Shown here piece after piece: positions 1,710 through 21,372 of a DNA stretch of 32,000 bases; within the stretch, counting starts at the first letter, position 1, and the number at the start of each line of letters is the position of its first letter. Position numbers and translations under genes: made by a program. The notes beneath the pieces are model-generated. The model was not told the origin of the DNA. It saw nothing but the letters and a program-made list of their open reading frames with translations, and made no database searches. Source of the DNA: Trichlorobacter lovleyi SZ (lineage in GTDB: Bacteria; Desulfobacterota; Desulfuromonadia; Geobacterales; Pseudopelobacteraceae); the NCBI RefSeq assembly GCF_000020385.1, contig NC_010814.1, positions 1,230,001 to 1,262,000 of the forward strand, given 5' to 3'.

Positions 1710-1754
1710 TTGACTCCTGAAGTAAAAAGAGAGTATATGAGTATTTAGTCATAT
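1710..1754 (+). promoter_or_regulatory. Sigma70-like promoter (TTGACT, 17-18 nt spacer, TATATG) overlapped by a 20-bp near-palindrome, ATATGAGTATTTAGTCATAT; candidate ArsR/SmtB-type operator
   Basis: TTGACT at 1710-1715 and TATAT(G) at 1734-1739. The palindrome at 1735-1754 is symmetric at 16 of 20 positions. The half-site ATATGAGT recurs at 3702. Confidence 0.45.
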
Positions 1755-1786
1755 TGTGTATACCTCTGGCTGAACGGAGTCATCCC

Positions 1787-2734
1787 ATGATCAAATCATT
1801 TGCCGATTACCTGACCTTCACCCTGATCGGGCTACAACCCGGTTCCCACCTGGGCGAGGCACTCAATTTCTTTGTCTATGACACCCTCAAGATCTTTCTG
1901 CTGCTGACGGTTATTATTTTTTGTGTTGCGGTTATCCGGTCCTGGTTTTCTCCGGAACGGACCAGGCGCATTCTGTCCCACAACCGTGAGTACGTTGGCA
2001 ACGTATTGGCCGCCCTGCTGGGCACGGTCACCCCTTTTTGTTCCTGTTCGGCAGTGCCGCTCTTTATCGGTTTTGTTGAGTCCGGTGTGCCGCTTGGCGT
2101 GACCTTTTCGTTTCTGGTTTCGGCTCCAATGGTGAATGAGGTAGCCCTGATCATGCTCTGGGGTATGTTCGGCTGGAAGATTGCCCTGATCTACATCGGC
2201 ACCGGCTTGCTGGTGGCGATTGTCTCCGGGATTGTGATCGGCAGACTGAAGATGGAAAAGCATGTGCAGGATTACGTCTGGCAGATCAAGGTGGGCGAGG
2301 GTGAGGTTGTAGAACAAACCTTTCGTGAGAAGCTGGTCTATGCCCGTGATTACACGCGCGATCTGCTGAAGAAGATCTGGCCCTATGTAGTGATCGGGGT
2401 CGGCCTGGGCGCCTTTATCCACGGCTATGTGCCCCAGGACTTTCTGGTGCGCTGGGCAGGCAGGGACAACCCGTTTGCAGTACCGGTTGCCGTTGCCCTG
2501 GGGGTGCCGCTTTACAGTAATGCTGCCGGCGTGATTCCGATCGTACAGGCCCTGATGAGCAAGGGGATGGCGATTGGTACGGTGCTGGCCTTCATGATGG
2601 CGGTCACGGCCTTATCCCTGCCGGAGGCCGTGATCCTGAGTAATGTGTTGAAGCGGAAACTGCTGGTTACCTTTTTTGGTATTGTGGCTGTGGCTATCAT
2701 GATTGTGGGGTATCTGTTCAATCTGATTTTGTGA
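1787..2734 (+). CDS. COG0701-type permease (ArsP-like, two-domain membrane protein)
   Basis: ORF 1754..2734 trimmed to ATG 1787 (MIKSFADY...). Multi-TM hydrophobic profile and a TPFCSCSAVP motif typical of this permease family. This family is commonly found beside redox-active disulfide protein 2 and ArsR. Confidence 0.8.
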   Translation: MIKSFADYLTFTLIGLQPGSHLGEALNFFVYDTLKIFLLLTVIIFCVAVIRSWFSPERTRRILSHNREYVGNVLAALLGTVTPFCSCSAVPLFIGFVESGVPLGVTFSFLVSAPMVNEVALIMLWGMFGWKIALIYIGTGLLVAIVSGIVIGRLKMEKHVQDYVWQIKVGEGEVVEQTFREKLVYARDYTRDLLKKIWPYVVIGVGLGAFIHGYVPQDFLVRWAGRDNPFAVPVAVALGVPLYSNAAGVIPIVQALMSKGMAIGTVLAFMMAVTALSLPEAVILSNVLKRKLLVTFFGIVAVAIMIVGYLFNLIL

Positions 2735-2741
2735 GGTACTC

Positions 2742-3017
2742 ATGAAGCATCCGTCTGTTACACCAAATATTCTGGATGCACCTGATGACGAGATTATCTG
2801 TTGGTGTGCAAAGGTTAGCAAGGGGGCGGTGTGCGATGCTATTGCCGATGGTGCTGATACACTGGACAAACTGCATGAACAGCTCGGTATTCTCAGAGGT
2901 GCCCTGTGTGCAGAGAAATCTCCGCGTGGCCGTTGCTGTTGTCAGGAAGTAGTAGCTCTGCTCACCCACAGTGCCCTGTGCAGGGCACGACGGCGAGGGG
3001 CGTTGCAGGCAGCATAA
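2742..3017 (+). CDS. Small BFD-like [2Fe-2S]-binding domain protein (Cys form)
   Basis: ICWCAKVSKGAV...SPRGRCCCQEV: a CxC plus distal Cys pattern like the bacterioferritin-associated-ferredoxin-like domain. Starts 8 nt after the permease stop. Paralog of the 10839..11039 gene. Confidence 0.7.
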   Translation: MKHPSVTPNILDAPDDEIICWCAKVSKGAVCDAIADGADTLDKLHEQLGILRGALCAEKSPRGRCCCQEVVALLTHSALCRARRRGALQAA

Positions 3018-3039
3018 AACGAGAAGGGAGGATCGGATT

Positions 3040-3402
3040 ATGTCAGCTAAAAAGGGGTTTGTGTTGTGTGTCTGCCAGGGGACTTGTCCCAGTTTTACCA
3101 AGATGGATATCTTCGGGGTGTTGGCCGATGTGCGGCGGGAAAAGATCTTTGATTACGTCTGTCTGCATCCCCAGCTCTGTGTTGGTGATGGCGAGGAGTT
3201 TCTGAAGGTGCTGCTCTCCGGTGGTGAAACCGAAAAACTGTACATCGCGGCCTGTGATCCACAGATGCAGTGCAAGATGTACCGCGATGCCTTCGAGGCG
3301 GTTGGCTTTGACAAGGCCAATCATGTCGCCCTGGATATCCGCAACAAGACCACCGAAGAGGCCGTGGCAGCCATCAAGGCAATGGCTGTCAATAACCCCT
3401 GA
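3040..3402 (+). CDS. Cysteine-rich cytoplasmic protein, putative Fe-S/redox protein (weak resemblance to MvhD/HdrA-associated domains)
   Basis: ORF 2971..3402 trimmed to ATG 3040, which follows GGGAGGA (3026-3032). Motifs: FVLCVCQGTCPSF, VCLHPQLC, IAACDPQMQC. Confidence 0.65.
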   Translation: MSAKKGFVLCVCQGTCPSFTKMDIFGVLADVRREKIFDYVCLHPQLCVGDGEEFLKVLLSGGETEKLYIAACDPQMQCKMYRDAFEAVGFDKANHVALDIRNKTTEEAVAAIKAMAVNNP

Positions 3403-3414
3403 AGGGAGCAAGCC

Positions 3415-3699
3415 ATGAGCGAGTGGCGCGGCATACCCCGTGAAGAGATCCCCTGGTTTCCGACGGTTGATGCAGAAAAGTGTATCGGCTGCCGGGAGTG
3501 TGTCAATTTCTGCCGAAACAATGTGCTGACCTTTGATGAGTCAACCGGCAAGACCGTGGTGGTGAATCCGTACAACTGTGTGGTGGAGTGCCGTACCTGC
3601 TCCCGGCTCTGTCCGGTGGATGCCATCAATTTTCCTGATGAAATGGAATTTACAGCCTTGGTCAAAAAACTGCTGAATAATCGCTCAATTAATTCTTGA
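3415..3699 (+). CDS. 4Fe-4S dicluster-type ferredoxin domain protein
   Basis: CIGCRECVNFC and CVVECRTCSRLCP motifs. GGGAG lies 7 nt upstream of the ATG. Confidence 0.85.
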   Translation: MSEWRGIPREEIPWFPTVDAEKCIGCRECVNFCRNNVLTFDESTGKTVVVNPYNCVVECRTCSRLCPVDAINFPDEMEFTALVKKLLNNRSINS

Positions 3700-3701
3700 G
3701 C

Positions 3702-3734
3702 ATATGAGTTATTATTCATGATTATTCATAATTG
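3702..3734 (+). promoter_or_regulatory. Second copy of the ATATGAGT half-site in an AT-rich region with tandem ATTATTCAT repeats; candidate operator/promoter for the 3820-onward genes
   Basis: ATATGAGTTATTATTCAT (3702-3719) followed by GATTATTCATAATTG. Imperfect dyad ATGAGT-N4-ATTCAT. It also has Fur-box-like ATWAT periodicity. Confidence 0.35.
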
Positions 3735-3819
3735 CTGCACAGGTTTTTCATAAAGGCAATGTAATGTGGAAACAACCGGAGAATAGTCTCCGGCGTAACC
3801 CCACAAGGAGGATCAAGCT

Positions 3820-4128
3820 ATGAAAACGATCATCACCACCGTTGCACTGACCCTGGCCCTTGCCATGAGCTTTGCCGTTGCCGAGGCCCGTCCCTATCGC
3901 TGGCAGGGCAACCAGCAGAACACCTACGGCTGGCAGTTGATGACCGCTGATGAGCGGACCGAACATCAGGCCAAGCTGCGCAGCTTCACTGAGTACACTG
4001 CCTGCAAGGAATATGTAGATGAACACCACAAAAAAATGGAAGAGCGTGCCAAGGAAAAAGGGATCACCACCCCGATGGTCAAACGTAACCCTTGTGATCT
4101 CTTGAAGGCCCGTGGTGTGCTGAAATAA
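3820..4128 (+). CDS. Small secreted helical protein with two Cys and a His-rich patch (function unknown; faint Spy/CpxP/ZraP-like flavour)
   Basis: AAGGAGGA RBS. Signal peptide MKTIITTVALTLALAMSFAVAEA. DEHHKKMEE patch. Confidence 0.7.
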   Translation: MKTIITTVALTLALAMSFAVAEARPYRWQGNQQNTYGWQLMTADERTEHQAKLRSFTEYTACKEYVDEHHKKMEERAKEKGITTPMVKRNPCDLLKARGVLK

Positions 4129-4190
4129 CAGATCCCTGACGGCGTGCCTCGTTCATGCGAGGTGCGCCGTATTACTTCCACGGAGCGCAG

Positions 4191-4460
4191 ATGGAACGAA
4201 AATATCTTGAGCTGATCGGTATCGCTGCCTCTATCGGTAGTGAATGCCCAGATTGACTGGACTGGCACCTGAATGCTGCCCGTGAGGCAGGCGCAACCGA
4301 CAATGAACTGAAAGAAACCATCAGAATGTCCCAACGGGTACGCACCGTCACACTGGATAGCCATACCCGCTTTACCGCAAAAGTCATGGAGCTGTTGAAG
4401 CAGTTACCAAATGAAGCAACCGCTGAAGGGACGGCGGATCATACCACCCAAGGAGCATGA
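4191..4460 (+). CDS. AhpD-like (carboxymuconolactone decarboxylase family core) selenoprotein with a C-P-D-U motif; TGA 4254-4256 read as Sec
   Basis: Not in the ORF track because of the in-frame TGA. Translation: MERKYLELIGIAASIGSECPDULDWHLNAAREAGATDNELKETIRMSQRV... This matches the AhpD core pattern (LI.iA.s...C..C...H...A...Ga...El.E). It fills an otherwise empty 335-nt gap. The next gene's RBS and ATG sit right at its stop. Confidence 0.75.
4274..4293 (+). promoter_or_regulatory. Candidate bacterial SECIS hairpin for TGA 4254
   Basis: CUGCC-CGUGA-GGCAG (4276-4290), extendable by 2 bp with one bulge. The loop starts 24 nt after the TGA. This is a modest stem. Confidence 0.4.
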
Positions 4461-4463
4461 ATC

Positions 4464-4691
4464 ATGAAACTGGAAGTGTTGGGCACCGGCTGTGCCAAGT
4501 GCAAGACCCTGCTTGAAAACGTCAAGAAGGCCGTTGAGACCTCTGGTAAAGAGGCGGAGATCGTCAAGGTTGAGGATATCCCTTCAATCATGAAGTACGG
4601 TGTGATGAGTACCCCGGCCCTGGTTAAGGACGGCAAGGTGCTGTTTTCCGGCAAGCTGGCCACACCTGAAGAGATTGCGGGGATGCTCTGA
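4464..4691 (+). CDS. Thioredoxin-fold redox-active disulfide protein 2 family (small cytoplasmic CxxC protein)
   Basis: MKLEVLGTGCAKCKTL... with GCAKC active site. 75 aa. Typical partner of COG0701 permeases. Confidence 0.85.
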   Translation: MKLEVLGTGCAKCKTLLENVKKAVETSGKEAEIVKVEDIPSIMKYGVMSTPALVKDGKVLFSGKLATPEEIAGML

Positions 4692-5068
4692 TGCGGATCG
4701 TCTTGACACTTCTTTGTCTCTTGTTGACAAGCAGCGCCTTTGCTGAACTCCCCTCCGGCAATCAGTTCACTATCCAGGCTGCTCTGGCCTCCGGCAAACC
4801 CACCCTTGTTGATTTCGGCGCCCGCAGCTGCATCCCTTGCAAAAAGATGGCCCCGATTCTGGAGCAGCTGGAAAAGGAATACAAAGGTCGCGCCAATGTG
4901 ATCTTCGTGGATGTCTGGCAGGACAACAAAATCGGCGGTAATTACCGGGTACAGATGATTCCCACTCAGATCTTCTTTGATGCCAATGGCAAGGAATCAG
5001 GTCGCCATATTGGTTTCCTGGATCGCCAGCCGATTATTGATACCTTCAAAAAACTGGGTGTGAAGTGA
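4691..5068 (+). CDS. Periplasmic thioredoxin (CIPC active site) with signal peptide
   Basis: TGATG overlap with the previous gene. Signal peptide MRIVLTLLCLLLTSSAFA. VDFGARSCIPCKKMAP motif. Confidence 0.85.
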   Translation: MRIVLTLLCLLLTSSAFAELPSGNQFTIQAALASGKPTLVDFGARSCIPCKKMAPILEQLEKEYKGRANVIFVDVWQDNKIGGNYRVQMIPTQIFFDANGKESGRHIGFLDRQPIIDTFKKLGVK

Positions 5069-5748
5069 GCTTTCTGGACAACATTGAGCAGATCGTCACC
5101 CTCTATCCGATCCTGGCCTTTGGAGCGGTCTTTCTGGCCGGTGTTGTGTCGTCGGCTTCCCCCTGTGTATTGGCTACCATCCCGCTGGTGGTCGGCTTTG
5201 TGGGGGGCTATGCCGATGGCGACCGCAAGAAGGCGTTCAGCTATTCTCTCTCTTTTATCCTGGGACTTTCACTGACCTTCACCGCATTTGGCATGGCTGC
5301 CGGGCTGCTGGGCACCATGTTCGGCACCATGGGGGGCTGGTGGTACGTGGCCGCCGGTATCGTCGCGTTGGTGATGGGGGGGCAGATGATCGGCCTGTAC
5401 GAAATCCGGCTGCCGATCAAGCGGGAGTTCAAACCGAAGCAGGGGGGGATCGTCGGTTCGTTCCTGCTGGGCCTGTTCTTCGGCGTGGTTTCCTCTCCCT
5501 GTGCTACCCCGGTGCTGGTGGTGATTCTGACCTATGTGGCCACCAAGGGACAGATGCTGTACGGCGCAGCATTACTGTTCACCTATGCGGTGGGACACTG
5601 CCTGCTGATGCTCTTTGCCGGAACCTTTACCGGGTTTATCGAGGCCTTTGTCAAACAACAGGGGATTGTCAACTTTTCCACCCGAGTCAAGCAGTTCGGT
5701 GGCGTGGTGGTGGCCGGGGTTGGTGTCTATCTGCTTTGGAATGCCTGA
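5065..5748 (+). CDS. ccdA: CcdA/DsbD-family transmembrane thiol-disulfide electron transporter
   Basis: GTG start overlapping the upstream stop (GTGA). Two membrane-embedded SPC(V/A) motifs (SSASPCVLATIP, VSSPCATPVL). Six-TM profile. Confidence 0.8.
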   Translation: MSFLDNIEQIVTLYPILAFGAVFLAGVVSSASPCVLATIPLVVGFVGGYADGDRKKAFSYSLSFILGLSLTFTAFGMAAGLLGTMFGTMGGWWYVAAGIVALVMGGQMIGLYEIRLPIKREFKPKQGGIVGSFLLGLFFGVVSSPCATPVLVVILTYVATKGQMLYGAALLFTYAVGHCLLMLFAGTFTGFIEAFVKQQGIVNFSTRVKQFGGVVVAGVGVYLLWNA

Positions 5749-5788
5749 AGGAACAGCTGCAAGAGCGATAATTGACAAGGAACTGACC

Positions 5789-6760
5789 ATGTCTGATCAA
5801 TCAACATTCAACCTGCATCTGCGGGGATTCATCTCGCTTTTGACCGCATTGAGCTTTTTGATCATGACCGTTTCCGGTGTGATCCTGTTTATTACCCCTC
5901 AGGGAAGGGTGGCCTACTGGCTGGACTGGACCTTTTGGGGGATCAGCAAGTCGCAGTGGGGAGATATGCATATCACCACCAGCCTGCTGTTTGCCCTGGC
6001 CGGCTTGTGGCATACCTGGTTGAACTGGCGGGCACTGGTCAGCTATTTCCACGACAAGCTCAAAAAGACGGTGGCCCTGAAGTGGGAACTGACAATTGCC
6101 GTACTGATCACCATCTTCTGTACGGTGGGGGGGATCTACAAGACGCCGCCGCTCAGCTATGTCCTTGAGCTGAACGACTGGATCAAGGACGCCTGGGTCA
6201 CAAGCCCGGATGATGAGCCGGTTATCAGTCATGCGGAACTGCTGCCGCTCAAAAACTTCCTGAAAAAGGTGGATGTTGAACTGGAACCTGCCCTGGCTGA
6301 GCTGAAAAAGCAGGGCATAGCGGTCAGCGGACCTGATCAGAAGCTGCTGGATATTGCGAGAACTAACGGCAAGTCGCCGGCAGCCATCTACAAGCTGCTG
6401 AAACCGCTGGAAGGGAAATCTGCAGCCCAGACCCCATCTGTGCCGGTTGTCCCGGCTGTTCAGCAACCTTTAAAGCCGGTAACACCTGCCACACCGGCCG
6501 GAACCGGGCATATGCCGGCAAGGCAGCGCTGGACCGCCGAGCTGGTGCAGCAGCAGTTTGAAGGTAAAGGTGTGGGGCGCAAGACCTTGGCCGCTGTCTG
6601 TCAGGAACAGCAGCTTGACCAGGCGGCAATCATCAGAAAACTTGCAGCCCGCAAGATCAACGCAGCACCGGATGATACCCTGAAAAGACTTGGCGATGAG
6701 AGCGGTGAACTGCCGCTAGAACTGCTGAAAATTATCCTTGTCGGAGAACAGCGAAATTGA
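5789..6760 (+). CDS. Membrane protein with an N-terminal DUF4405-like 4-TM domain and a duplicated soluble C-terminal module
   Basis: ORF 5615..6760 trimmed to ATG 5789 (AAGGA upstream). TM region with conserved His (WGDMHITTSLLF, LWHTWLNW). C-terminal half described in findings. Confidence 0.7.
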   Translation: MSDQSTFNLHLRGFISLLTALSFLIMTVSGVILFITPQGRVAYWLDWTFWGISKSQWGDMHITTSLLFALAGLWHTWLNWRALVSYFHDKLKKTVALKWELTIAVLITIFCTVGGIYKTPPLSYVLELNDWIKDAWVTSPDDEPVISHAELLPLKNFLKKVDVELEPALAELKKQGIAVSGPDQKLLDIARTNGKSPAAIYKLLKPLEGKSAAQTPSVPVVPAVQQPLKPVTPATPAGTGHMPARQRWTAELVQQQFEGKGVGRKTLAAVCQEQQLDQAAIIRKLAARKINAAPDDTLKRLGDESGELPLELLKIILVGEQRN

Positions 6761-6790
6761 TTACAAACATTGTCTGAGGGAGAAATAGTT

Positions 6791-7258
6791 ATGCAACGTA
6801 CGTTCGTTCTTATCCTGTTGGTGCTTGGGCTTTTCGTGCTGCCCGCTGCTGCGGCTGAAGAGGTCTTTGATCGCTTTCTGGCCGGATTTGACTACGATAC
6901 CCGGGCTGATATGAAGACCGACAGCAAGCGGTTGATCAAACTGCTTGAGGAGAAAAAGGCGGTGCTGGTGGATATCCGCTTTCCTGAGGAGACCAGGGCC
7001 TGGCGGATGGGGTTTGGTCTGTTTATTCCGCTTAATGAGCTGCCCAAACGTCTTGCCGAACTGCCCAAGGACAAGATCATCGTCACCGCCTGTCCCCACA
7101 AGGACCGTTCCTCGATTGCTATGGCCTATCTGCGCACCAAAGGCTATAATGCGCGCTACCTGACCGACGGGCTGATTGGTCTGGCTGAAAACCTGCGGGG
7201 CGATACTGCCAAGGACTTTTTGGAAGACGCCGGTTTGGCACCGGCTGGAAAGAAGTGA
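6791..7258 (+). CDS. Periplasmic single-domain rhodanese-like sulfurtransferase
   Basis: ORF trimmed to ATG 6791. Signal peptide MQRTFVLILLVLGLFVLPAAAA. Active-site loop CPHKDRS (CX4R). Confidence 0.8.
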   Translation: MQRTFVLILLVLGLFVLPAAAAEEVFDRFLAGFDYDTRADMKTDSKRLIKLLEEKKAVLVDIRFPEETRAWRMGFGLFIPLNELPKRLAELPKDKIIVTACPHKDRSSIAMAYLRTKGYNARYLTDGLIGLAENLRGDTAKDFLEDAGLAPAGKK

Positions 7259-7572
7259 GCATGCTGAATACCCTGGAGTACAGCGCTGACGTGCTGAAGG
7301 CGATCTCGCAGCCGACCCGCTTAAGGATCATCGAACTGTTGCGGGATGGTGAGCATTGTGTCTGCGAGATCTTTCCGGCGATCGGGCATGAACAGTCCAA
7401 CACCTCCCGTCACCTGCAGATGATGCTGAAGAGCGGTATCCTTAACCAGCGCAAGGATGGGCTGAAGATCTACTACTCCCTGCGGCACCCGGAGGTGCTG
7501 GAGATAGTACGGCTGGCCGGTCTGATTGCCGCTCATGAGGCAACGCAACGGGCTGCGCTGTTTACCAGGTAG
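7255..7572 (+). CDS. ArsR/SmtB-family metalloregulatory repressor
   Basis: ISQPTRLRIIELL...GEHCVCEI...SNTSRHLQMML winged-HTH pattern. GTG 7255 overlaps the upstream stop; ATG 7261 is an alternative start. Confidence 0.85.
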   Translation: MSMLNTLEYSADVLKAISQPTRLRIIELLRDGEHCVCEIFPAIGHEQSNTSRHLQMMLKSGILNQRKDGLKIYYSLRHPEVLEIVRLAGLIAAHEATQRAALFTR

Positions 7573-7591
7573 TCTGAGAAAAGGGAGGAGT

Positions 7592-8248
7592 ATGACCAGA
7601 GAACAGTGGTTGCAACGGGCAAACTGGCTGGCGTTGTTTACCATCTTCTACAATATTGCAGAGGGCGTCGGATCGGTCTGGTTCGGGGCGGCTGACGAGA
7701 CCCTGTCGCTGTTCGGTTTCGGCGTGGATTCCTTTATCGAAGTAATCTCGGCAATCGGTATCTGGCACATGCTGCGCCGGATCAAGGCCAACGGAGGAGA
7801 GTCGCGGGACGAATTTGAGCAGCGTGCCTTGCGGATTACCGGCGCTGCCTTCTACCTGCTGACCATTGGTCTGGTGCTGACTGCCGGCATCAACCTCTAC
7901 CAGCAGCACAAGCCGGAGACCACCGTCTGGGGTATTGTGATCTCACTGTTCTCGATCTCGTTCATGTGGCTGTTGATTCACTACAAGACAAAGGCCGCTA
8001 CGGCCCTTGCCTCACCGGCAATCATGGCTGATGTGGCCTGTTCCAGGGCCTGCATGTATCTGTCGGTCGCCTTGCTGATCGCCAGCGTGGGGTATGAACT
8101 GACCGGGCTCGGTTATTTTGATGCCGTTGGTGCGCTGGTGATCTCCTGGCTGACCTATAAGGAGGGGCGGGAGTCCTTTGGCAAGGCCAGGGGGTTGGCA
8201 TGCTCCTGCAGCTGTTCTTGTGAATCAGCCAAGGAGAGTTCATTGTGA
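7592..8248 (+). CDS. Cation-efflux (CDF-like) membrane protein lacking the cytoplasmic C-terminal domain, with a Cys/Ser-repeat tail
   Basis: ORF trimmed to ATG 7592, which follows GGGAGGAG. TM profile with FGVDSFIEV motif. Tail ACSCSCSCESAKESSL. Confidence 0.7.
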   Translation: MTREQWLQRANWLALFTIFYNIAEGVGSVWFGAADETLSLFGFGVDSFIEVISAIGIWHMLRRIKANGGESRDEFEQRALRITGAAFYLLTIGLVLTAGINLYQQHKPETTVWGIVISLFSISFMWLLIHYKTKAATALASPAIMADVACSRACMYLSVALLIASVGYELTGLGYFDAVGALVISWLTYKEGRESFGKARGLACSCSCSCESAKESSL

Positions 8249-9174
8249 CCACGCTTGACAGCCATATCAGCGGCAAGTTCAAGATCGCCATTGCCCTGAC
8301 GGCGGTAACCCTGGTTGCGGAAGTGGCGGGTGGTCTCTGGACCAACTCATTGGCGCTGTTGTCCGATGCCGCCCATGTCTTTCTGGATCTGTTTGCGCTG
8401 ATATTGTCACTGGCTGCCGTGCAGCTGGCCGCTCTGCCTACCTCGGAACGGCATACCTACGGATTTCACCGTTCCGAGGTGTTCGCTTCCTTTATCAATG
8501 GCCTGACTGTCTTTCTGATGGGGATCGGAATTCTGTATGAGGCCTGGGGCCGCTTTGCCGCTCCGGAACCGGTCAAGAGCGGGCCGATGCTGCTGATTGC
8601 CGTGATCGGTCTGGTGATGAATCTGCTGGCCGCCAAGACCCTGCACAGCCACAGCCATGACGACCTGAACGTGAAGAGCGCCTTCCTGCATGTGGTGGGG
8701 GATGCTGCGGCATCGGTCGGTGTCATCATCGGCGGGATCGTGATGTACTATACCGGCTGGTACCTGCTGGATGCCCTGCTGTCGGCCGCCATCGGTCTGC
8801 TGATCCTTGCCGGGGCTGGGCGGGTGCTGCGGGATTCGGTACATATTTTGATGGAAGGGGCTCCCCGTGGGCTGGATCTGGCAGAGGTGGCAGCAGCCAT
8901 CCGTGCTGTAGAAGGGGTGCAGGACCTGCACCACCTGAACGTCTGGTCGGTCTGTTCGCACATCACCGCACTCTCCGTGCATGTTGAGATCGCAGCAGGC
9001 TATGATGATCGGCGCAGCGATCTGTTGCACCGGGTTGAACACGCCCTTGAACATCGCTTTCATATCACCCATACCACCATTCAGCTTGAGTGCAGTGACT
9101 GCAACGGCGGGCCGCTGATCAAACCGCTGCAGCACCGGCAGCGTCAGGAAGCGTGCTGCGGTCACGATCACTAG
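8245..9174 (+). CDS. Cation diffusion facilitator family divalent-metal efflux transporter (CzcD/ZitB-like)
   Basis: GTG start overlapping the upstream TGA, with AAGGAGA RBS. Motifs LLSDAAHVFLDL and HVVGDAAASVGV. C-terminal domain and CCGHDH tail. Confidence 0.85.
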   Translation: MTTLDSHISGKFKIAIALTAVTLVAEVAGGLWTNSLALLSDAAHVFLDLFALILSLAAVQLAALPTSERHTYGFHRSEVFASFINGLTVFLMGIGILYEAWGRFAAPEPVKSGPMLLIAVIGLVMNLLAAKTLHSHSHDDLNVKSAFLHVVGDAAASVGVIIGGIVMYYTGWYLLDALLSAAIGLLILAGAGRVLRDSVHILMEGAPRGLDLAEVAAAIRAVEGVQDLHHLNVWSVCSHITALSVHVEIAAGYDDRRSDLLHRVEHALEHRFHITHTTIQLECSDCNGGPLIKPLQHRQRQEACCGHDH

Positions 9175-9279
9175 CCATAATGGCTGCCAGTTGAAATAAG
9201 TAGACCTGCCCCTTGCACACGTGGGTTAAGCTGAGAATGTGAGATTCACAGCACAGAGCCACAACCAAGGAGGCAGGTC

Positions 9280-10389
9280 ATGGAAAAGTGTATCACGTAT
9301 GTCGGGCTTGATGTTCACAAAAACTCCATAGATGTCGCTTTGGCCGATGAAGGCCGTGACAAGGAAGTCCGTTACTACGGCACTATTGACGGCAGTCTTG
9401 ATGCATTGGACAAAGTTCTCAGAAAACTGGTTTCTCGTGGTACCGAACTTCGATTCGTCTATGAAGCTGGCCCGTGCGGTTATGACATCTATCGGCACCT
9501 AACCCGTAAGGGTTTTGATTGTATCGTGGTTGCCCCTTCTTTGATTCCCAAGAAGAGCGGCAGCCGAATAAAGAATGATCGGCGTGATGCCGAGATGCTG
9601 GCCCGTCTGCACCGAGCAGGCGAACTGACTCCGGTCTATGTTCCGCGCATCGAAGATGAGGCAATGCGCGACCTCTGCAGGGCCCGTATCGATGCAAAGA
9701 ATGCTGAGCGAAAGGCCCGTCAGCAATTGAATGCATTTCTGCTGCGCAGCGGCTTCCGCTATAGCGGCAAAACACTCTGGAGTCTTGCCCATTGGCGTTG
9801 GATCTCCGACATACACATGACGCATTCCGCACAGCAGATCACCCTGCAGGAGTATGTGGATGCAGTCAGATCGAACACAGAGCGCGTTGATAGGATCACG
9901 GAACAGATTTGCCTGCTTGCTGCAGAATGGCGACTTGGTCCGGTTGTCGAAGCGCTCCAAGCTCTGCGGGGAGTCTCTCTGGTAGTTGCCTCAACCACCG
10001 TTGCTGAGCTTGGTGACTTGAGTCGCTTTGACAATCCCCGACATCTGATGGCGTATCTGGGGCTTGTACCTTCAGAACACTCAAGTGGAGAGTCAACACA
10101 GCGAGGCGGTATAACCAAGACTGGCAATGGACATGCACGCCGAATGCTGGTCGAAGCTGCCTGGTCGTATCGGTTGCCGGCACGGGTTAGCAGGCGACTT
10201 CGAGACCGACAACAGAATCTGCCGCAAGCGGTATGGGAGATTGCCTGGAAGGCACAGCTCAGACTTTGCGCCCGCTACAAACGACTTGTTACCAAAGGCA
10301 AGCAGGCACAGGTAGTCATTACCGCCATTGCCAGAGAACTGTCCGCATTCATGTGGGCTATAGCCCAAGCAGTACCAGTCGCATCGTAA
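9280..10389 (+). CDS. IS110-family DEDD transposase/recombinase
   Basis: YVGLDVHK, VYEAGPCGY, KNDRRDA and C-terminal GLVPSEHSSGES..RGGITKTGNGHARRMLVEAAW motifs. AAGGAGG RBS. Confidence 0.9.
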   Translation: MEKCITYVGLDVHKNSIDVALADEGRDKEVRYYGTIDGSLDALDKVLRKLVSRGTELRFVYEAGPCGYDIYRHLTRKGFDCIVVAPSLIPKKSGSRIKNDRRDAEMLARLHRAGELTPVYVPRIEDEAMRDLCRARIDAKNAERKARQQLNAFLLRSGFRYSGKTLWSLAHWRWISDIHMTHSAQQITLQEYVDAVRSNTERVDRITEQICLLAAEWRLGPVVEALQALRGVSLVVASTTVAELGDLSRFDNPRHLMAYLGLVPSEHSSGESTQRGGITKTGNGHARRMLVEAAWSYRLPARVSRRLRDRQQNLPQAVWEIAWKAQLRLCARYKRLVTKGKQAQVVITAIARELSAFMWAIAQAVPVAS

Positions 10390-10657
10390 CCAGATTTCAA
10401 AGAACATGATTCAGTTTCTGTCCACAGAGGTTGCGGCCAAGGTACCGGAGAATCCTCGGGCCTGTTATGGGATAAGGCATCAAGCCGAACTCCCGGCTCT
10501 AGCGAGAGGCAGCTCCACGACGTAGGCAAGACATGCGGTAACCAACCCGCGAATATCAGCGTGATCTACCGTCGTTGAAAAAGGCCCCGTACCTCTGGGA
10601 CAGAAATTTAAAAGATCAAAAGGGGCAGAATATTTTAGGCTTGAAACTGTCAGCCAT
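10390..10657 (+). ncRNA. Putative element-encoded guide (bridge/seek) RNA region in the long 3' non-coding end of the IS
   Basis: 268-nt non-coding right end against a 100-nt left end. Long-range pairing of CTGTCCACAGAGGT (10418-10431) with ACCTCTGGGACAG (10591-10603). The RNA identity is inferred from family knowledge only. Confidence 0.3.
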
Positions 10658-10660
10658 ATC

Positions 10661-10804
10661 AACAGGTTGTTGAAAAACTACTACGGAGCCCGTCTACTTC
10701 GTTGCGCGGTGCTCGCTCCTTCTCCTAACTATACGTTATGTCTCAGTCGCTGTGCGCCGTGCGCCTTGTAGCCGTGCTTCCTCATAACGTTTTTCAACAG
10801 CCTG
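10661..10804. repeat. About 144-bp palindromic intergenic element (element A) with 16-bp terminal inverted repeats
   Basis: CAGGTTGTTGAAAAAC (10663-10678) against the reverse complement of GTTTTTCAACAGCCTG (10789-10804), 15/16 matching. The interior has two pyrimidine-rich direct half-units ending in CTCCTAAC and CTCATAAC. Confidence 0.6.
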
Positions 10805-10838
10805 CTAACCGCAGGAACTGCTTCAGGAGATGCTATAG

Positions 10839-11039
10839 ATGCAAGATAATGAGATGATCTGTTGGTGCAGCAAGGTGACGGCCGGAGCTATCCGGCAGGC
10901 GAAACAAGACGGTGCAATTACAATGGAAGATATTCGCCGCATGACCGGCGCCTGCACCCTGGGGCGCTGCAAGGAGCTGTCCCCACGGGGTAGATGATGC
11001 GCCCGCGAGGTCAAGCAGGTGCTTGACGAAACCACCTAG
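10839..11039 (+). CDS. Small BFD-like [2Fe-2S]-domain selenoprotein; TGA 10995-10997 read as Sec (66 aa)
   Basis: AGGAG RBS 9 nt upstream of the ATG. MQDNEMICWCSKVTAGAI...CKELSPRGR-U-CAREVKQVLDETT*. The TGA aligns with the first Cys of SPRGRCCCQEV in the in-window paralog (2742..3017). SECIS-like hairpin 12 nt downstream. Confidence 0.7.
11010..11027 (+). promoter_or_regulatory. Candidate SECIS hairpin for TGA 10995
   Basis: Perfect 7-bp stem GUCAAGC/GCUUGAC with AGGU loop. The loop starts 19 nt after the TGA. Confidence 0.55.
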
Positions 11040-16470: not shown

Positions 16471-16521
16471 ACCACATGAAGGAGGGATAGGTGAGTATCC
16501 CTGTGTTGCTTGTTTTGCCGG

Positions 16522-17865
16522 TTATTTTCCGGTAGTACTGATTTTTACGGTCTTTTTGAACTCTTTCCAGAGGAACGGATCATCATCCATGGTGCCGAAC
16601 GGCAGGTACCAGAGCCTGACTTCCAGATCCAGGGTGTCGCTGCTGATGCTGCTTACCTTCTTGCCATCCTTCTCCTCTGTCTTGACCGGGAAGAAGATGT
16701 CATGGGTTGTGATGATCGTCCTCAACGGCGGCAGGCTGGTGTCTTCCAGCATACCGCTCTTTTCGTAAGGACCACGTCCCATCCGGTCGCCTTTACCCAG
16801 TTGCTGAGGAATCGGCATGAATATACGTTCTGCGTTGAATACTTCCTTGCCACTCTTGTCTTTTGCTTTTACCGACAGAACCAGTCGGTTGGGGGTCGGT
16901 CAGCCATCGGGTATGCCGTGACCGGCCTTGTTGGTCAGCTCAATCCGTACCGCTGCCTTGGGACGGATAGTCGTGTTATCCCGCCAGTAGACCGAGTTGG
17001 TTTCCACATGCATCTCAACCGCCTTTTGAGCCATCTCCTTGGAGCGGTAACTCTGCATGTTATGGCCCAGCTTGCTCTCACGCATATGGCACTGCTGGCA
17101 GCTCTTGTTGCCCCCTTCCGGTATATAGGCCATCAGGTAGCTGGCATAGCCGGTTGCACACTGGGTCGGGTTTTCCTGATCAAAGTTGGGGCCCTGTCCG
17201 TGACACTGGCCACACATGATCGATTCAGACATGATCTGCCCTTTGGCCATTTTGGTGAACTTGCCATCCATATGCTCGCCTGACTTGCTGCCGTAGACCG
17301 TATCCTTTTTGGGGTAGCCTTCAGACCACTTGTGGGTAATGGCATTACGGTTGTGGCAGATCAGGCAGTTAATATTAAGTGAGGAAAGGGTCTTCTCAAG
17401 TTTTTCTGCCTTGTCGGTATCTTCCTTTTTAATGGCGGCATCCCAATCCCAGAGCGTGGTCACGATTTCCTGAGCAACCTTGTCGGTTGCATCAGCCAGT
17501 TGGGGCAGGTGACACTTGGTACAGCCCTGCAGGTGTTCAACCTTGACATCCTTGGGTGACTTGACACCGGAGGCGGGCCAATCCATTGCGCCGTTGATGA
17601 TAGCGGTCCTGAAGGTGGCTGCAGTACGTCCTGTGCCAAAGATAGAGCGGGCGTGGATCGATTTTGCCCATTCGTCATGGGCCTGCTGATGGCAGCCGAT
17701 GCAGGAACTGGAGTCATAGCGTGCCACCAGTTCGGCAATACTGTTGGCCTTGGGCTGCGAAGCAAGGGTGGCGTCGCGGCCAACACCGACAGGAGCGGCA
17801 AGCGCCGCTACGGCAAAGGTACTAAGTGCCAGGCAGGCCAGAACTGTAGTACGAAATAGGTGCAT
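16522..17865 (-). CDS. extKL: Pentaheme c-type cytochrome selenoprotein (ExtKL-type); TGA at 16902-16900 read as Sec (447 aa)
   Basis: ORFs 16900..17865 and 16522..16818 are in the same frame (offset 1047 nt) with no other stop between them. Junction: ...NKAGHGIPDG-U-PTPNRLVLSVKAKDKSGKEV... Five CXXCH motifs (CIGCH, CTKCH, CLICH, CGQCH, CQQCH). SECIS-like hairpin downstream. The gene context matches extHIJKL. Confidence 0.8.
16871..16889 (-). promoter_or_regulatory. Candidate SECIS hairpin for TGA 16902-16900
   Basis: Minus-strand RNA ACCGAC-UGGUUCU-GUCGGU: 6-bp perfect stem with GGU in the loop. The loop begins 17 nt after UGA. Confidence 0.55.
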
Positions 17866-18649: not shown

Positions 18650-19861
18650 TTAGAAAATCACCTGTAGCTGGGTAATAAAGGTGTTGAAGTCTTTGGTCCG
18701 TACATTGGTACCATCCGGACCGCTGTAGGTACCCTTCTTGTCAAACATGGTCATGCCGTACTCCATGGTAACCTTCAGGTTCTGGCCCCAGATGTAGTAG
18801 TTGGCACCGACGCCGGCCCAGTCAACCCGCTGGTCGTAAATGTTGTTCAGTTGGGCAAATTTCCACTTTTCGTAGCGGCCGAAGAGTTGCAGCGGCAGGT
18901 TGGGCAGCATGTAGCCTCCCTTGAGGTACCAGCCGTTTTTCTCCCCGTTCAGTCCGATGGTGTTCGTGTCGGGGTTGGCGCCCAGATAGGCGTTGTCCAG
19001 CTTGTAGTTGGCGTAGGCACCGGAAACGGTAATGGTGCCCATATCTTTAACCGGATACTCAAAGAAACCGTCCAGGGTCCAGGCGTAATAATCCTTTTCA
19101 CCGGTTTTTGCTGCCACGTTGCTGTAGGCAACCTTCGGTTCATACTGCATGGCACCGCCGATGGTCAAAACCTTCTTTTTGCCCAGATAGGTCCCCTTGT
19201 AGCCATAGTCGTTCTCCGGATCAAGCAGCGAGGCATGGGCCCGCATGGTGTAGCGGAAGTTGGATTTGGGAGCACTCTCGCCGGAAGCCGCTTTCCGCCC
19301 TTCCATGACGTCAAGCCGGTACTGGAACATATCCTTGTACACGTTGCCCCAGACTGCCAGACCCATGTCACGGGTGGTCACAAAGGGGGCGCGGATGAAC
19401 AGGGAACGGTCCAGCGTCAGAGGCATTTCACAGGCCTCCAGGTTCTCACGCGAGAAATTGTACTTGAATTTACCGACATTGACATTGAAGGCGTCATGCA
19501 GGTTAAAACGTACAACCGCATCCAGGATCGTGAATTCAGGGTTGGTCGGCGTACTGTTGACTCCCAGAGTGTTGATGCTGGTCTGGTCCACAAACTCCGT
19601 CTGCACATACAGGCTCATCATATCGCCATAGGCCCCCATCAGGGCCAGCCGGTTCCGGCGGAAGTTGAAGTTGGTGGTTGTGTCATCGTTGTTGGTGCCT
19701 GAACCGCTGTCACGGACAGTCATCTGGAACTGGCCCTTATAGTCAATTTGCAGCACCCCTTTATCATCAGGCCCGAAGGTTATCTGGGGGCCGGCCATGG
19801 CCGGTGCGGCCAGGCCCAGCATCAGTGCGGCTGCAGCGCTTACTTTACCGATTTTAGTCAT
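18650..19861 (-). CDS. extI: Outer-membrane beta-barrel porin (ExtI-like)
   Basis: Start ATG 19861 (AGGAG 9 nt upstream); ATG 19894 is an alternative. Signal peptide ...LGLAAPAMA. Alternating beta-strand pattern rich in Y/G/N. C-terminal ...QLQVIF ends in the typical terminal Phe. Confidence 0.75.
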   Translation of the reverse strand: MTKIGKVSAAAALMLGLAAPAMAGPQITFGPDDKGVLQIDYKGQFQMTVRDSGSGTNNDDTTTNFNFRRNRLALMGAYGDMMSLYVQTEFVDQTSINTLGVNSTPTNPEFTILDAVVRFNLHDAFNVNVGKFKYNFSRENLEACEMPLTLDRSLFIRAPFVTTRDMGLAVWGNVYKDMFQYRLDVMEGRKAASGESAPKSNFRYTMRAHASLLDPENDYGYKGTYLGKKKVLTIGGAMQYEPKVAYSNVAAKTGEKDYYAWTLDGFFEYPVKDMGTITVSGAYANYKLDNAYLGANPDTNTIGLNGEKNGWYLKGGYMLPNLPLQLFGRYEKWKFAQLNNIYDQRVDWAGVGANYYIWGQNLKVTMEYGMTMFDKKGTYSGPDGTNVRTKDFNTFITQLQVIF

Positions 19862-19926
19862 AGAAGATTTCTCCTTTGATATGTGCTGAGTCATAGACTG
19901 GTTATCCGATGGACTCTACGGCTGGA

Positions 19927-21279
19927 TCAGCAGCCGCTGCCGGTGCCACCGCCGCCGCCACCGCCGGTTGTTGTGCCGCCGCTGGTGAAGTAGGCCTTGT
20001 CTTCGTTCAGCATCTGGTTGGCGCGGGGATCGGTGATGGTTGAATAGATGGCATTAGCGATTGGGTCTATGGTTAGTGTTGCCGGCTTGACGTTGCCGGT
20101 GCCGGCAGGATCATACAGAGAAGCATTTGCGGTTCTGTTTATTGCCACTGTTGCAGAGGTGTTGACATTGGTGCGCCATGCCGTAGCCACCGGGCTTGTT
20201 GAGAGGGATGTGTAACCGCTCCATTGGCCCCATGAACCGTCATACAGGGTGACCGGCCAGCCGAGGATGCCGTCCAGGACAAAGAATGCCGTTGAGGCAC
20301 GCATGCCGCTGGCGCAGTAGAGGTAGGTCATGGTTTTGTTGGCGGTTATGCCAAAATTGGCAAGATTGGCGGTTAATGCAGCGGTATCCTTGAATGTTCC
20401 TGCCACGGTGCCGTAATAGTTCATATGGCTGTCAAGGACAGTGGTGGTTCCGTTGTTATAGGTGGCTGCATTGGCAATGTACGGGTGAGTGGTCACGTTG
20501 ACACCGCCACGCTCATCCATGATGGCGACACCGGTTGCGCCGGTGCTGATGGTTCCGGCATTGATCTTGTCCACAAGGTTGATCATTTCGCCGATTGAGT
20601 AACGCAGGTTAAAGTTGGTGGTGGTTGTGCCGTTATACAGGTTCTTGACGCTGAAAGTGGAGGCCGGGATGGTCGGTACGGTTGCTGTCACCGCGTAGGC
20701 TGCCGGCCATGTAGCCGCCGCAGTTGTCCAGGCGGTCTGGCCACCGTTGAGGATCTTTACGCGTTCTTTGGGGAAGCCCCAGTAGCGAAGTGTGAAATAG
20801 ACCCTGGATGCGTTCATGGCTGTGTCGGTCCCTGTCGGGGCAATGACAATCGTCGTATACTGGTTGATACCGAGTCTTTGGATATGTCCGTCAATGGTCG
20901 GGCCGTCCATAACCATGGTGCCGATCGCAGTGACACCTTCCAGGCGGGTCAGGTTCAGTGCCCCGGAGTCCAGTAACTGCGAACCGGGGATGTGGGCTGT
21001 GGCATAGTTGGCCGGGGTTCCTACTGATACAATCACTACCCGATCACGGGTTGCAGGGTCGGGGTTGTTGACCTTGCCTTCATCCATCCATTGTTTAAGG
21101 GTTGCCGGTTCAATCAGTGCCGTTGCTGTTTTTGTCGTTGTGATTGAGGCATTGGGGTCAGTGTAGCTGCTGGTTCCGCCTCCACCTCCGCAACCCCACA
21201 GTGTCAGTGCGGTGGTCAGCAGTAAGCCGGCCAGACTGAACAGCATGCTCCTTCTTGTCATCACAAAACGTTGCATCAT
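19927..21279 (-). CDS. extH: Multi-domain rhodanese-family lipoprotein (ExtH-like) with a Gly-rich C-terminal tail ending in Cys
   Basis: AGGAGG 5 nt upstream of ATG 21279. Lipobox TLWGC followed by GGGGG. Rhodanese motifs ATAHIPGS and YCASGMRAS (CX4R). Tail TSGGTTTGGGGGGGTGSGC followed by TGA. Confidence 0.75.
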   Translation of the reverse strand: MMQRFVMTRRSMLFSLAGLLLTTALTLWGCGGGGGTSSYTDPNASITTTKTATALIEPATLKQWMDEGKVNNPDPATRDRVVIVSVGTPANYATAHIPGSQLLDSGALNLTRLEGVTAIGTMVMDGPTIDGHIQRLGINQYTTIVIAPTGTDTAMNASRVYFTLRYWGFPKERVKILNGGQTAWTTAAATWPAAYAVTATVPTIPASTFSVKNLYNGTTTTNFNLRYSIGEMINLVDKINAGTISTGATGVAIMDERGGVNVTTHPYIANAATYNNGTTTVLDSHMNYYGTVAGTFKDTAALTANLANFGITANKTMTYLYCASGMRASTAFFVLDGILGWPVTLYDGSWGQWSGYTSLSTSPVATAWRTNVNTSATVAINRTANASLYDPAGTGNVKPATLTIDPIANAIYSTITDPRANQMLNEDKAYFTSGGTTTGGGGGGGTGSGC

Positions 21280-21360
21280 ACACACCTCCTGAGGTTTTGG
21301 CCTGTCGGCCGTTGGTTGGGGCATACGCAGGTTTCCTGTGACATGCGTACGCGGACTGAT

Positions 21361-21372
21361 CTTACATGTAAG
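21361..21372. promoter_or_regulatory. Perfect 12-bp palindrome CTTACATGTAAG in the ext/lysR divergent region
   Basis: Read directly. Followed by the related direct repeat TCATATGTAGG. About 80 nt upstream of the extH-like start. Confidence 0.35.

Follow-up and report, generated by a model that had tools for sequence, protein, structure and literature searches.

A putative ArsR-controlled gene cluster in Trichlorobacter lovleyi as a probable enlarged form of a recurrent ars accessory gene set

Introduction

Geobacteraceae strongly shape the mobility of arsenic in aquifers and rice paddies, and to our knowledge few of the genes found alongside arsR, arsC and acr3 in anaerobes have been given names. 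Here, we analyzed a 32-kb stretch of the Trichlorobacter lovleyi SZ genome (32,000 nucleotides of contig NC_010814.1, hereafter the window), in which a co-directional run of genes at 1710–11039 combines an ArsP-family permease, iron-sulfur (FeS) proteins, small thiol and selenol proteins, a CcdA-type transporter, a DUF4405 membrane protein, a rhodanese, an ArsR/SmtB repressor and two cation diffusion facilitator (CDF) proteins. A preliminary description had proposed that these genes form one ArsR-controlled unit for handling a Se, Te, As or S species. Comparison with related loci shows a dedicated two-thiol ArsR subtype with a conserved putative operator, and a gene set that appears to be co-inherited with arsenic-resistance (ars) genes. 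On balance, we think it probable that the region is a single ArsR/SmtB-repressed Trichlorobacter regulon, in which a recurrent 'ars accessory' gene set has been enlarged in a lineage-specific way.

Results and discussion

Genes and features of the cluster

Genes were called from an open reading frame (ORF) listing, frame translations, and Pfam and NCBIfam profile scans of the window; profile scores are given in bits against the family cut-off. Every gene that the preliminary description had named is present on the plus strand where it had been placed. The cluster opens with a -35-like hexamer TTGACT (1710–1715) and a 20-bp palindrome, ATATGAGTATTTAGTCATAT (1735–1754), both on the plus strand, as are all the genes that follow. 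The first gene (1787–2734) encodes an inner-membrane permease with an FCSCS motif, which matches the ArsP family over its full length (PF03773/ArsP_1, COG0701, TC 2.A.119; 286.1 vs 32.3, profile positions 1–293 of 294). Next come a BFD/CopZ-N-terminal-like cysteine-rich protein with a GRCCC motif (2742–3017; Pfam Fer2_BFD 19 bits, under the cut-off), a second cysteine-rich protein of 120 aa (3040–3402, hereafter CysRich) and a 2x[4Fe-4S] ferredoxin recognized by Pfam and NCBIfam (3415–3699; Fdx).

CysRich belongs to a small family: it has 176 close relatives, and clustering of 1.84 billion proteins at 50% leaves 159 representatives. Five cysteines (Cys10, 12, 16, 47 and 72) are invariant. The top seven Foldseek hits in PDB for its AlphaFold model (pLDDT 87) were all HdrA N-terminal domains (TMq 0.68–0.75, probability 1.0), and a profile search matched HdrA residues 39–101. 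CysRich is thus predicted to be a free-standing HdrA-N-domain [4Fe-4S] protein. It is not a full HdrA, being 120 aa rather than ~650 aa long and without the FAD-binding thioredoxin-reductase-like core and the ferredoxin domains.

Beyond an intergenic region (3702–3793) lies a gene for a 102-aa secreted protein without a family match in Pfam or NCBIfam (3820–4128), which the preliminary description had overlooked and which recurs within related clusters of two other loci, L012 and L073 (fetched loci are cited by L numbers throughout). It is followed by an AhpD/CMD-fold selenoprotein gene (4155–4460) and by a run of three thiol-redox genes. The first of these encodes a cytoplasmic 75-aa thioredoxin-fold protein with a CAKC motif (Trx3, 4464–4691; Pfam Thioredoxin_3), a member of the MTH895/ArsE family (TIGR00412, 100.5 vs 62). 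The second encodes a secreted thioredoxin with a signal peptide and a CIPC motif (pTrx, 4691–5068). The third encodes a CcdA/DsbD-type membrane thiol-disulfide transporter (5065–5748; DsbD_TM, PF02683, 91.1 vs 27.1), which has one cysteine per half, in the motifs SASPCVLA and VSSPCATP. We also considered whether pTrx and CcdA are ArsF and ArsG, and rejected it: pTrx gave no ArsF match, and CcdA scored 36.5 bits vs the ArsG cut-off of 200.

The DUF4405 membrane protein (5789–6760; PF14358, 66.1 vs 26.7) has two histidines, His61 and His75, that are invariant in 18 sequences. We predict three transmembrane helices, with the histidine pair on the second, and two C-terminal helical repeats. The structural model was poor (pLDDT 65, pTM 0.39) and weak in the membrane part, and Foldseek against PDB returned nothing under E = 0.3; the top matches, sigma factors at a TM-score of ~0.1, were dismissed, and the C-terminal repeats match no solved fold. 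Downstream lies a secreted single-domain rhodanese (6791–7258; PF00581, 34.1 vs 22.2) with the catalytic cysteine in a six-residue loop, CPHKDR, of the form CX4R. CX4R is the loop of sulfurtransferase-type rhodaneses, while CX5R belongs to Cdc25/Acr2-type arsenate reductases.

The ArsR/SmtB repressor gene (7255–7572) precedes two CDF genes. The short CDF-like membrane protein (7592–8248) passes PF01545, Cation_efflux (36.9 vs 26.6), and fails TIGR01297 (34.1 vs 82.35); the long, CzcD/ZitB-like exporter (8245–9174) passes TIGR01297 (261.8 vs 82.35) and stays under the ZitB equivalog (229.6 vs 408). Both end in cysteine-rich tails, ACSCSCSCESAKESSL with CSCSCSCES (8190–8248) and RQEACCGHDH (9130–9174), respectively. 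The last cluster gene in Trichlorobacter encodes a BFD/CopZ-N-terminal-like selenoprotein (10839–11039), of which the BFD-like protein at 2742–3017 is a cysteine paralogue (44% identity).

The tight co-directional packing on which the preliminary description relied was borne out: overlaps of 1–4 nt occur at four junctions (Trx3/pTrx, pTrx/CcdA, rhodanese/ArsR and CDF/CDF), such that pTrx shares nucleotides with the stop codon of Trx3 at its start and with the start codon of CcdA at its end. The remaining gaps measure 2–41 nt, except for 120 nt ahead of 3820.

The cluster is interrupted by a 1487-bp insertion of the IS110 family (9174–10660; transposase at 9280–10389, NCBIfam 'IS110 family RNA-guided transposase'), which had also escaped the preliminary description. 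This element is not a member of the cluster and was inserted precisely at the stop codon that ends the long CDF gene. Eight metagenome contigs or metagenome-assembled genomes (MAGs) of the same species (L001–L008; breakpoints by blastn) lack it while being 99.3% identical elsewhere, which makes it a recent insertion specific to this strain. Another strain of the species carries a different insertion: in L004, a gene for a 546-aa methyl-accepting chemotaxis protein (MCP; 6709–8349 of that locus) lies between the ferredoxin and the 102-aa gene, in the same 120-nt gap that holds the intergenic region described above.

Two candidate selenoproteins

The AhpD-type gene contains an in-frame TGA at 4254–4256 (motif CPDU), and the terminal BFD-type gene has one at 10995–10997 (motif GRUC). 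The preliminary description had set the two selenocysteine (Sec) genes at the ends of the cluster; their number holds, but the AhpD-type gene is internal and only the BFD-type gene lies at the 3' end. Orthologues of the AhpD-type protein (56–87% identity) have the same TGA codon in L012 and L026 and a cysteine in L059 and L065. Likewise, orthologues of the BFD-type protein (72–78% identity) have TGA in L009, L010, L014, L038 and L046 and cysteine in L061. Both TGA codons are genuine Sec candidates since they are conserved, the protein sequence downstream of each is kept, and more distant homologues have cysteine at these positions. Folding of the 60 nt past each TGA, in search of a Sec insertion sequence, gave small hairpins whose energies did not stand out from those of shuffles (z = +0.84 and -1.33), and an Rfam scan of the whole window found no family reaching its gathering score.

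Both types of selenoprotein have been listed before, as a distant AhpD homolog/CMD-like protein (CxxU) and as form 1 of the (2Fe-2S)-binding CopZ family (GxUC), with Sec motifs and folds identical to those of the pair in the window (PMC13188914). Nevertheless, the two proteins score under the NCBIfam equivalog cut-offs (GSU3128 family 45 vs 110; Csac_0668 family 48 vs 190), and by these scores they would be related subfamilies rather than members of those exact families. The SAO and TSO selenoprotein systems were likewise rejected, with scores far under the cut-offs and the defining partner genes absent.

A conserved palindrome heads the related clusters

The palindrome at 1735–1754 lies 18 nt after the -35 hexamer and 52 nt ahead of the ArsP start, and overlaps the -10 region. 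A search for ATATGA-N8-TCATAT, allowing at most one arm mismatch, in all non-redundant fetched loci (1.45 Mb) returned 19 matches, and each of the 19 precedes the first gene of a related cluster. The distance to that gene is 27–62 nt in 17 of the 19, and 5 nt at two weaker sites (L129/L131). Where ArsR is encoded distally the first gene is ArsP, and in L026, L059, L065, L069, L080 and L085 it is the ArsR orthologue itself. We take the cluster-head palindrome to be the putative ArsR operator; its recurrence at the head of every related cluster is consistent with the ArsR control that had been proposed from the single locus.

The repressor belongs to the winged-helix HTH_5 family (NF033788, 89.3 vs 55; PF01022, 50.4 vs 22). 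Its sole cysteines are the alpha-3 pair C-V-C, in a segment, EHCVCEI, that aligns with ELCVCDI of CadC. Orthologues with 56–93% identity share the motif GE[HR]CVCEIFPAIG.EQSNTSRHL, in which CVC is invariant in all, while alpha-5-type histidines vary. The retention of only these two cysteines, together with the lack of conservation of alpha-5-like histidines, points to a soft metal or metalloid as the signal, and not to Zn, Co or Ni at an alpha-5 site. A second, canonical ArsR (ELCVCDL, ~41% identity) stands in front of the neighboring arsC-acr3 genes in L059, L065 and L066; the two repressors are therefore distinct subtypes.

The preliminary description had pointed to two ATATGAGT sites as ArsR targets. 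Both exist, at 1735 and 3702, although two matches to an 8-mer are not significant by themselves (two or more turned up in 9 of 100 shuffles). The first forms one half of the conserved palindrome. The second (3702–3721) was rejected as an ArsR operator, its palindrome not being kept in L012 or L073. The region around it (3702–3793) contains an AT-rich repeat, TTATTCATGA/TTATTCATAA, and the AT-rich element ATATTCATAATTA upstream of the 102-aa gene is kept in L012 (~6790–6880) and L073 (~10710–10740). A perfect hairpin, CCGGAGA-ATAG-TCTCCGG (3776–3793), is common to the window and L012, and no Rfam family matched it. This region may be an internal promoter or regulatory site.

Cluster membership is kept while gene order is shuffled

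Two sets of loci were compared: 50 loci anchored on DUF4405, one genome per species, onto which the island proteins were mapped by tblastn, and 35 metagenome loci of at least 6 kb anchored on CysRich; the sampled loci are not phylogenetically independent. About 10 of the 50 DUF4405-anchored loci hold the cluster, all of them Geobacteraceae and in modular form. Overall, at least 10 Geobacteraceae genomes, and several contigs from metagenomes, group the same families despite a shuffled order. L009–L016, L038 and L046 keep ArsP, Trx3, (pTrx, CcdA), DUF4405, rhodanese, ArsR, CDF and the Sec-containing BFD protein, with L038 and L014 further rearranged, and the complete gene set of the window was found only in L012 among the DUF4405-anchored loci. 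A Geobacter sp. (L026), whose DUF4405 protein is 46% identical, has ArsR, ArsP, DUF4405, the Sec-containing AhpD protein, CysRich, Fdx, rhodanese, Trx3, pTrx and CcdA in this order. L069 reads ArsR, ArsP, CysRich, Fdx, rhodanese, Trx3, pTrx, CcdA, and L073 reads ArsR, ArsP, CDF, CysRich, Fdx, the 102-aa protein, BFD, Trx3, pTrx, CcdA, rhodanese. The ferredoxin is present in 34 of the 35 CysRich loci, directly adjoining the CysRich gene in the gene maps.

Membership that survives the shuffling of order is a classical signature of functional linkage, and these patterns support the view that the cluster is one functional unit, as had been supposed. One could instead imagine a mosaic of independent small operons (ArsP with the FeS genes, Trx-CcdA for cytochrome c maturation, DUF4405-rhodanese and ArsR-CDF) that happen to be packed into a variable region. 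Modules do come and go among close relatives; for example, Trichlorobacter thiogenes ATCC BAA-34 (L009) has ArsP, Trx3, DUF4405, rhodanese, ArsR, two CDFs and the Sec-containing BFD protein, without the first BFD protein, CysRich, Fdx, AhpD, pTrx or CcdA. Moreover, a conserved AT-rich element of its own is present in the gap ahead of 3820, the region accommodates insertions (IS110 here, the MCP gene in L004), and more distant DUF4405 homologues occur in unrelated contexts. However, chance packing would not be expected to re-associate the same families in different orders across lineages (L026, L064, L069, L073), the palindrome is found at cluster heads only, and start/stop overlaps span two of the supposed module borders, Trx3/pTrx and rhodanese/ArsR. 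We consider such a mosaic very unlikely.

Related clusters lie among ars genes

The reading of the region as one ArsR-repressed unit leads to the question of its substrate. In L064, a single co-directional run consists of ArsR, an LMWP-type ArsC, Acr3, ArsP, CysRich, Fdx, Trx3, a secreted thioredoxin and CcdA, with identities to the proteins of the window of 81% (ArsP), 85% (CysRich), 65% (Fdx), 67% (Trx3), 55% (secreted thioredoxin) and 74% (CcdA). ArsP orthologues of 81–83% identity come after arsR-arsC-acr3 or after the ArsR orthologue. In a group of sister clusters (L059, L060, L065 and L066) the order is ArsR, ArsE-type thioredoxin, ArsP (433 aa), ArsF, ArsG, CysRich, Fdx, (Zn-ribbon), (CMD), ArsR, ArsC, Acr3 and radical-SAM protein. 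The leading ArsR of these clusters is 56–60% identical to that of the window and carries the palindrome, and their ArsF (123.8 vs 60) and ArsG (292.7 vs 200) are true members of the NCBIfam families. An ArsM-like methyltransferase gene is nearby, divergent in L059, L060 and L066 and downstream in L065.

The association is not confined to these loci. ArsC or Acr3 is encoded in the flanks of 27 of the 35 CysRich loci, and an ArsM-like gene alone in two more; ArsR, ArsC, CysRich, Fdx is a frequent four-gene arrangement among them, and in many genomes the FeS pair directly follows an LMWP-type ArsC. Plasmids carry permease homologues of 55–58% identity in similar surroundings. On Sulfuricella plasmid pSCD (RefSeq), the homologue (58.5%) lies among arsR, rhodanese, arsC, ACR3 and arsM genes. 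On a Citrobacter plasmid (L068), the permease homologue precedes genes for a Trx3-type thioredoxin and a rhodanese, with a CDF gene 1.3 kb and ACR3 ~5 kb upstream. Rhodanese genes thus recur both in plasmid ars contexts and in related clusters (L069, L073). In P. mercurii ND132, an operon of ArsR5, ArsP, ArsE (PF13192) and DGC is up-regulated by arsenic (bioRxiv 10.1101/2022.10.17.512643). Lastly, NCBIfam contains fusion families of an arsenite methyltransferase with an AhpD-type Sec domain, which provide a further, independent link between AhpD and arsenic.

We also observed many metagenome contigs (L089–L117, e.g. L090 at 2835–4500) with a compact ArsR, LMWP-type ArsC, HdrA-N-domain protein and ferredoxin arrangement and without a thioredoxin gene. 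Because these operons lack a thioredoxin gene, the FeS pair may act as a ferredoxin-dependent reductant for ArsC.

Given that the conserved partners elsewhere are arsC, acr3, arsM, arsF and arsG, the substrates of the system are most likely arsenic compounds rather than selenium or sulfur. Of the Se, Te, As and S species that the preliminary description had entertained, arsenic therefore holds up, and its preference for a chalcogen does not. Several points weigh against an arsenic role. A tblastn search with ArsC, Acr3 and ArsM queries gave no match in the 32-kb window, and arsB is also absent, so that the locus lacks the ArsB or Acr3 pump, and the usual ArsC, that under ArsR make up a canonical ars operon. 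We therefore regard it as an accessory regulon and not a complete ars operon. Further, the best-scoring models for the permease are SaoE and SO_0444 (Cu/Zn), if under their cut-offs; cations are suggested by the pair of CDF exporters and by a BFD domain akin to the N-terminus of CopZ; the flanks are related to sulfur and selenium (an octahaem cytochrome, and an ext-type cluster whose genes include ExtI- and ExtH-like ones and one for a MccSep-like Sec cytochrome); and the whole functional argument is one of guilt by association.

Divalent metals as the substrate

The cation-related features could be read as a regulon for efflux of soft divalent metals (Cd, Zn, Pb, Cu or Hg), in which a CadC-like ArsR controls the two CDFs and the permease, the BFD/CopZ-N-like proteins serve as metallochaperones, and the thiol-redox genes repair periplasmic thiols in the manner of Scs/Dsb-type systems. 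The CDFs are ZitB-like with cysteine-rich tails and in Trichlorobacter directly follow ArsR, the BFD proteins match CopZ N-terminal models, and the ArsR aligns best with CadC-type proteins at its CVC motif. Against this, the NCBIfam scores concerned are all far under the family cut-offs; for the permease (SaoE 140.1 vs 325, SO_0444 115.7 vs 300, and no other sao genes), membership in either family was rejected. The repressor also lacks the N-terminal cysteines of CadC, in addition to the conserved alpha-5-type histidines. Moreover, the same ArsR orthologue and putative operator head clusters without any CDF gene (L026, L059, L065, L066, L069 and L080), and CDF-free clusters with this ArsR are embedded in ars genes. 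We judge an efflux role of this kind to be unlikely. CDF genes were also seen in related ars-type clusters, namely L073, L128, L129 and the Citrobacter plasmid locus, although we know of no CDF protein that transports arsenic.

Sulfur- and selenium-related neighbors

The ext/Rieske cluster that had been noted next door is real and lies on the minus strand. It includes a Porin_O_P gene (ExtI-like), a rhodanese gene (ExtH-like) and a multihaem cytochrome gene (16516–17865, minus strand), in which a 321-codon ORF ends in TGA at 16900–16902 and is followed by 127 in-frame codons. This cytochrome is probably a Sec-containing protein of the MccSep/ExtKL type, and its gene would then be the third selenoprotein gene of the window. 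MccSep (U325) is the S0/selenite reductase of Geobacter sulfurreducens (PMC13510729), and ExtI has been implicated in selenite and tellurite reduction (PMC5877670). On the other side, the gene immediately upstream (57–1610) encodes an octahaem c-type cytochrome of the tetrathionate-reductase family (TIGR04315, 516 vs 375), and an octahaem cytochrome gene is also found ahead of ArsP in L011, L012, L013, L016 and L038.

Such neighbors, with the periplasmic rhodanese and the two selenoproteins of the island itself, would fit a relay for S, Se or Te, in which the periplasmic rhodanese, thioredoxin and DUF4405 protein process polysulfide, thiosulfate, selenite or tellurite delivered by the ext system and the cytoplasmic Sec and Cys proteins carry the chalcogen. 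Adjacency to the ext/Rieske genes is, however, restricted to the species of the window and L038. At E <= 1e-10 over at least half of their length, the ext-cluster proteins found no match in L009, L010, L014, L026, L046, L059 or L064–L066; L009 has a partial match to the terminal cytochrome c of the ext cluster upstream of ArsP. Across lineages, the partners of the core genes are instead the ars genes listed above, and the conserved regulator is a two-thiol ArsR type and no known persulfide sensor. In addition, the island is set apart from the upstream cytochrome gene by a hairpin with 17-bp arms (1623–1685) and by its own promoter and putative operator. A chalcogen relay thus seems improbable to us.

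A Porin_O_P (ExtI-like) gene paired with a LysR regulator gene recurs just upstream of the island in L001 (967–3497), L012 (549–3200) and L073 (4680–7200), and the pair is seen again in the ext cluster of the window (18650–22498). It may provide an outer-membrane entry route for oxyanions.

Relation to known systems

The preliminary description considered the combination of genes to be undescribed. This claim does not survive: an association of the core genes was noted in 2010, some of its members have since been named (ArsP, ArsE, ArsF and ArsG), and the ArsR-ArsP-ArsE operon of P. mercurii is the arsenic-induced one mentioned above. The window shares with this known ars-type association the PF03773 permease, the PF13192/TIGR00412 thioredoxin-like protein, a thioredoxin, CcdA and ArsR, and orthologues of its genes share operons with arsC and acr3. 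It differs in being without arsC, acr3, arsA and arsD, and in adding the HdrA-N FeS protein with its ferredoxin, the AhpD-like Sec protein, two BFD-like proteins (one with Sec), the predicted haem-b DUF4405 protein, a secreted rhodanese and two CDFs. The selenoprotein types and haem binding by DUF4405 proteins are already published. By contrast, the literature that we searched yielded no description of an HdrA-N-domain protein with a ferredoxin as a constant ars companion, of a dedicated ArsR subtype with its operator, or of a Trichlorobacter variant extended by DUF4405, a periplasmic rhodanese, Cys-tailed CDFs and two Sec-containing forms. These additions (DUF4405, rhodanese, CDF and Sec) are a lineage-specific variant.

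The cluster resembles ArsEFG in its layout, which combines a small ArsE-type protein with a further thioredoxin-like protein of the membrane or periplasm and with a membrane protein of the DsbD/CcdA fold; in 2019 Chen, Zhang and Rosen reportedly found that ArsEFG of Shewanella putrefaciens 200 detoxifies aromatic arsenicals. In the sister clusters L059, L065 and L066, true ArsF and ArsG take the place of pTrx and CcdA. The window, however, has only the ArsE member, and its CcdA looks like a genuine CcdA. The window also recalls the relays from CcdA to an extracytoplasmic thioredoxin (CcdA-ResA, CcdA-Etrx and DsbD), in that its CcdA is translationally coupled to a secreted CxxC thioredoxin, and it has a rhodanese in the same cluster. 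Both CcdA and pTrx also align with TsoB, a fusion selenoprotein of rhodanese, DsbD and thioredoxin (89.7 and 29.2 bits vs a cut-off of 805), but in the window the proteins are separate, and none of the CcdA, pTrx and rhodanese genes contains Sec.

Like the DUF4405, FezC and MsrQ-like haem-b cytochromes, the window protein has PF14358, and its two invariant histidines are 14 residues apart on one transmembrane helix as in the three-helix FezC, so that haem binding is predicted; DUF4405 and three-helix FezC proteins bind haem b, FezC by dimerizing (PMC11334425). The context differs from FezC systems in having no ApbE, flavinylation or ferrosome genes, and the protein has two extra C-terminal helical repeats. 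A haem-b DUF4405 protein and a CcdA/secreted-thioredoxin route into the periplasm, both suggested in the preliminary description, are consistent with what is known of these families.

A working model

We propose that the repressor binds the palindrome at 1735–1754, over the -10 region, and would be released by a ligand, most likely a trivalent arsenical, bound to the C-V-C thiols. The idea that a two-cysteine site suits an organoarsenical such as MAs(III) comes from the MAs(III)-selective ArsR of Shewanella. The ArsP-type permease would then export a trivalent (organo)arsenical, as its family and context suggest. In the cytoplasm, the ferredoxin might supply low-potential electrons, by way of the HdrA-N-domain protein, to a group of small thiol and selenol proteins: the ArsE-type thioredoxin, the CxxU-containing AhpD-like protein and the two BFD-like proteins (GxUC and CCC). 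These would reduce or carry arsenic-thiol species. By analogy with their families, the ArsE-type thioredoxin could hand reducing power through CcdA to the secreted CIPC thioredoxin. The roles of the remaining proteins are speculative, that of the 102-aa protein included: the predicted haem-b DUF4405 protein might provide a second transmembrane electron path, the secreted rhodanese might handle sulfane sulfur or shield periplasmic thiols, and the two Cys-tailed CDFs might add efflux of soft cations under the same control.

A bolder version of this model, which we think has a small chance of being right, assigns the core (HdrA-N protein, ferredoxin, ArsE-type thioredoxin, CxxU AhpD and GxUC BFD) the function of a ferredoxin-powered arsenical thiol/selenol reductase. 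In Trichlorobacter it would be extended across the envelope, via CcdA and DUF4405, to the periplasmic thioredoxin and rhodanese, which would reduce or thiolate arsenic to give thioarsenicals. The core might be, for example, an anaerobe's reductant for LMWP-type ArsC or a reductase of pentavalent methyl or aromatic arsenicals, to which, as far as we know, no gene has been assigned.

Regardless of mechanism, a compact recurring set of an HdrA-N FeS protein, a ferredoxin, an ArsE-type thioredoxin and AhpD-like and BFD-like proteins travels with ars genes, often together with CcdA/thioredoxin or ArsF/ArsG, and in one lineage it has gained a putative haem-b membrane protein, a rhodanese in the periplasm, CDF exporters and two Sec variants. 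Should these proteins feed low-potential electrons into arsenic reduction, or produce thioarsenicals, they would close a gap in the anaerobic arsenic cycle, and the ArsR with its operator would make a clean biosensor part. Were the substrates cations or sulfur instead, a reason would have to be found for so strong a genomic association with ars genes.

DUF4405 relatives outside the cluster

The DUF4405 part is a narrow addition of the Trichlorobacter/Geobacter lineage, because it is absent from all 35 of the long CysRich-anchored loci and its more distant homologues lie in other contexts. The closest named relative is from Trichlorobacter lovleyi (89% identity), and other close ones are from Trichlorobacter and Geobacter MAGs. 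DUF4405 was rejected as a universal anchor of the cluster, with homologues of at most 57% identity, except that of L026, in unrelated contexts. In Geobacteraceae, a paralogous clade of 320-aa DUF4405 proteins (L021–L035, e.g. L025 at 3487–8912) is always encoded after two small secreted proteins, an outer-membrane-like protein, a CxxCH histidine kinase and a sigma-54 response regulator, a neighborhood that appears to be a separate, uncharacterized conserved cluster.

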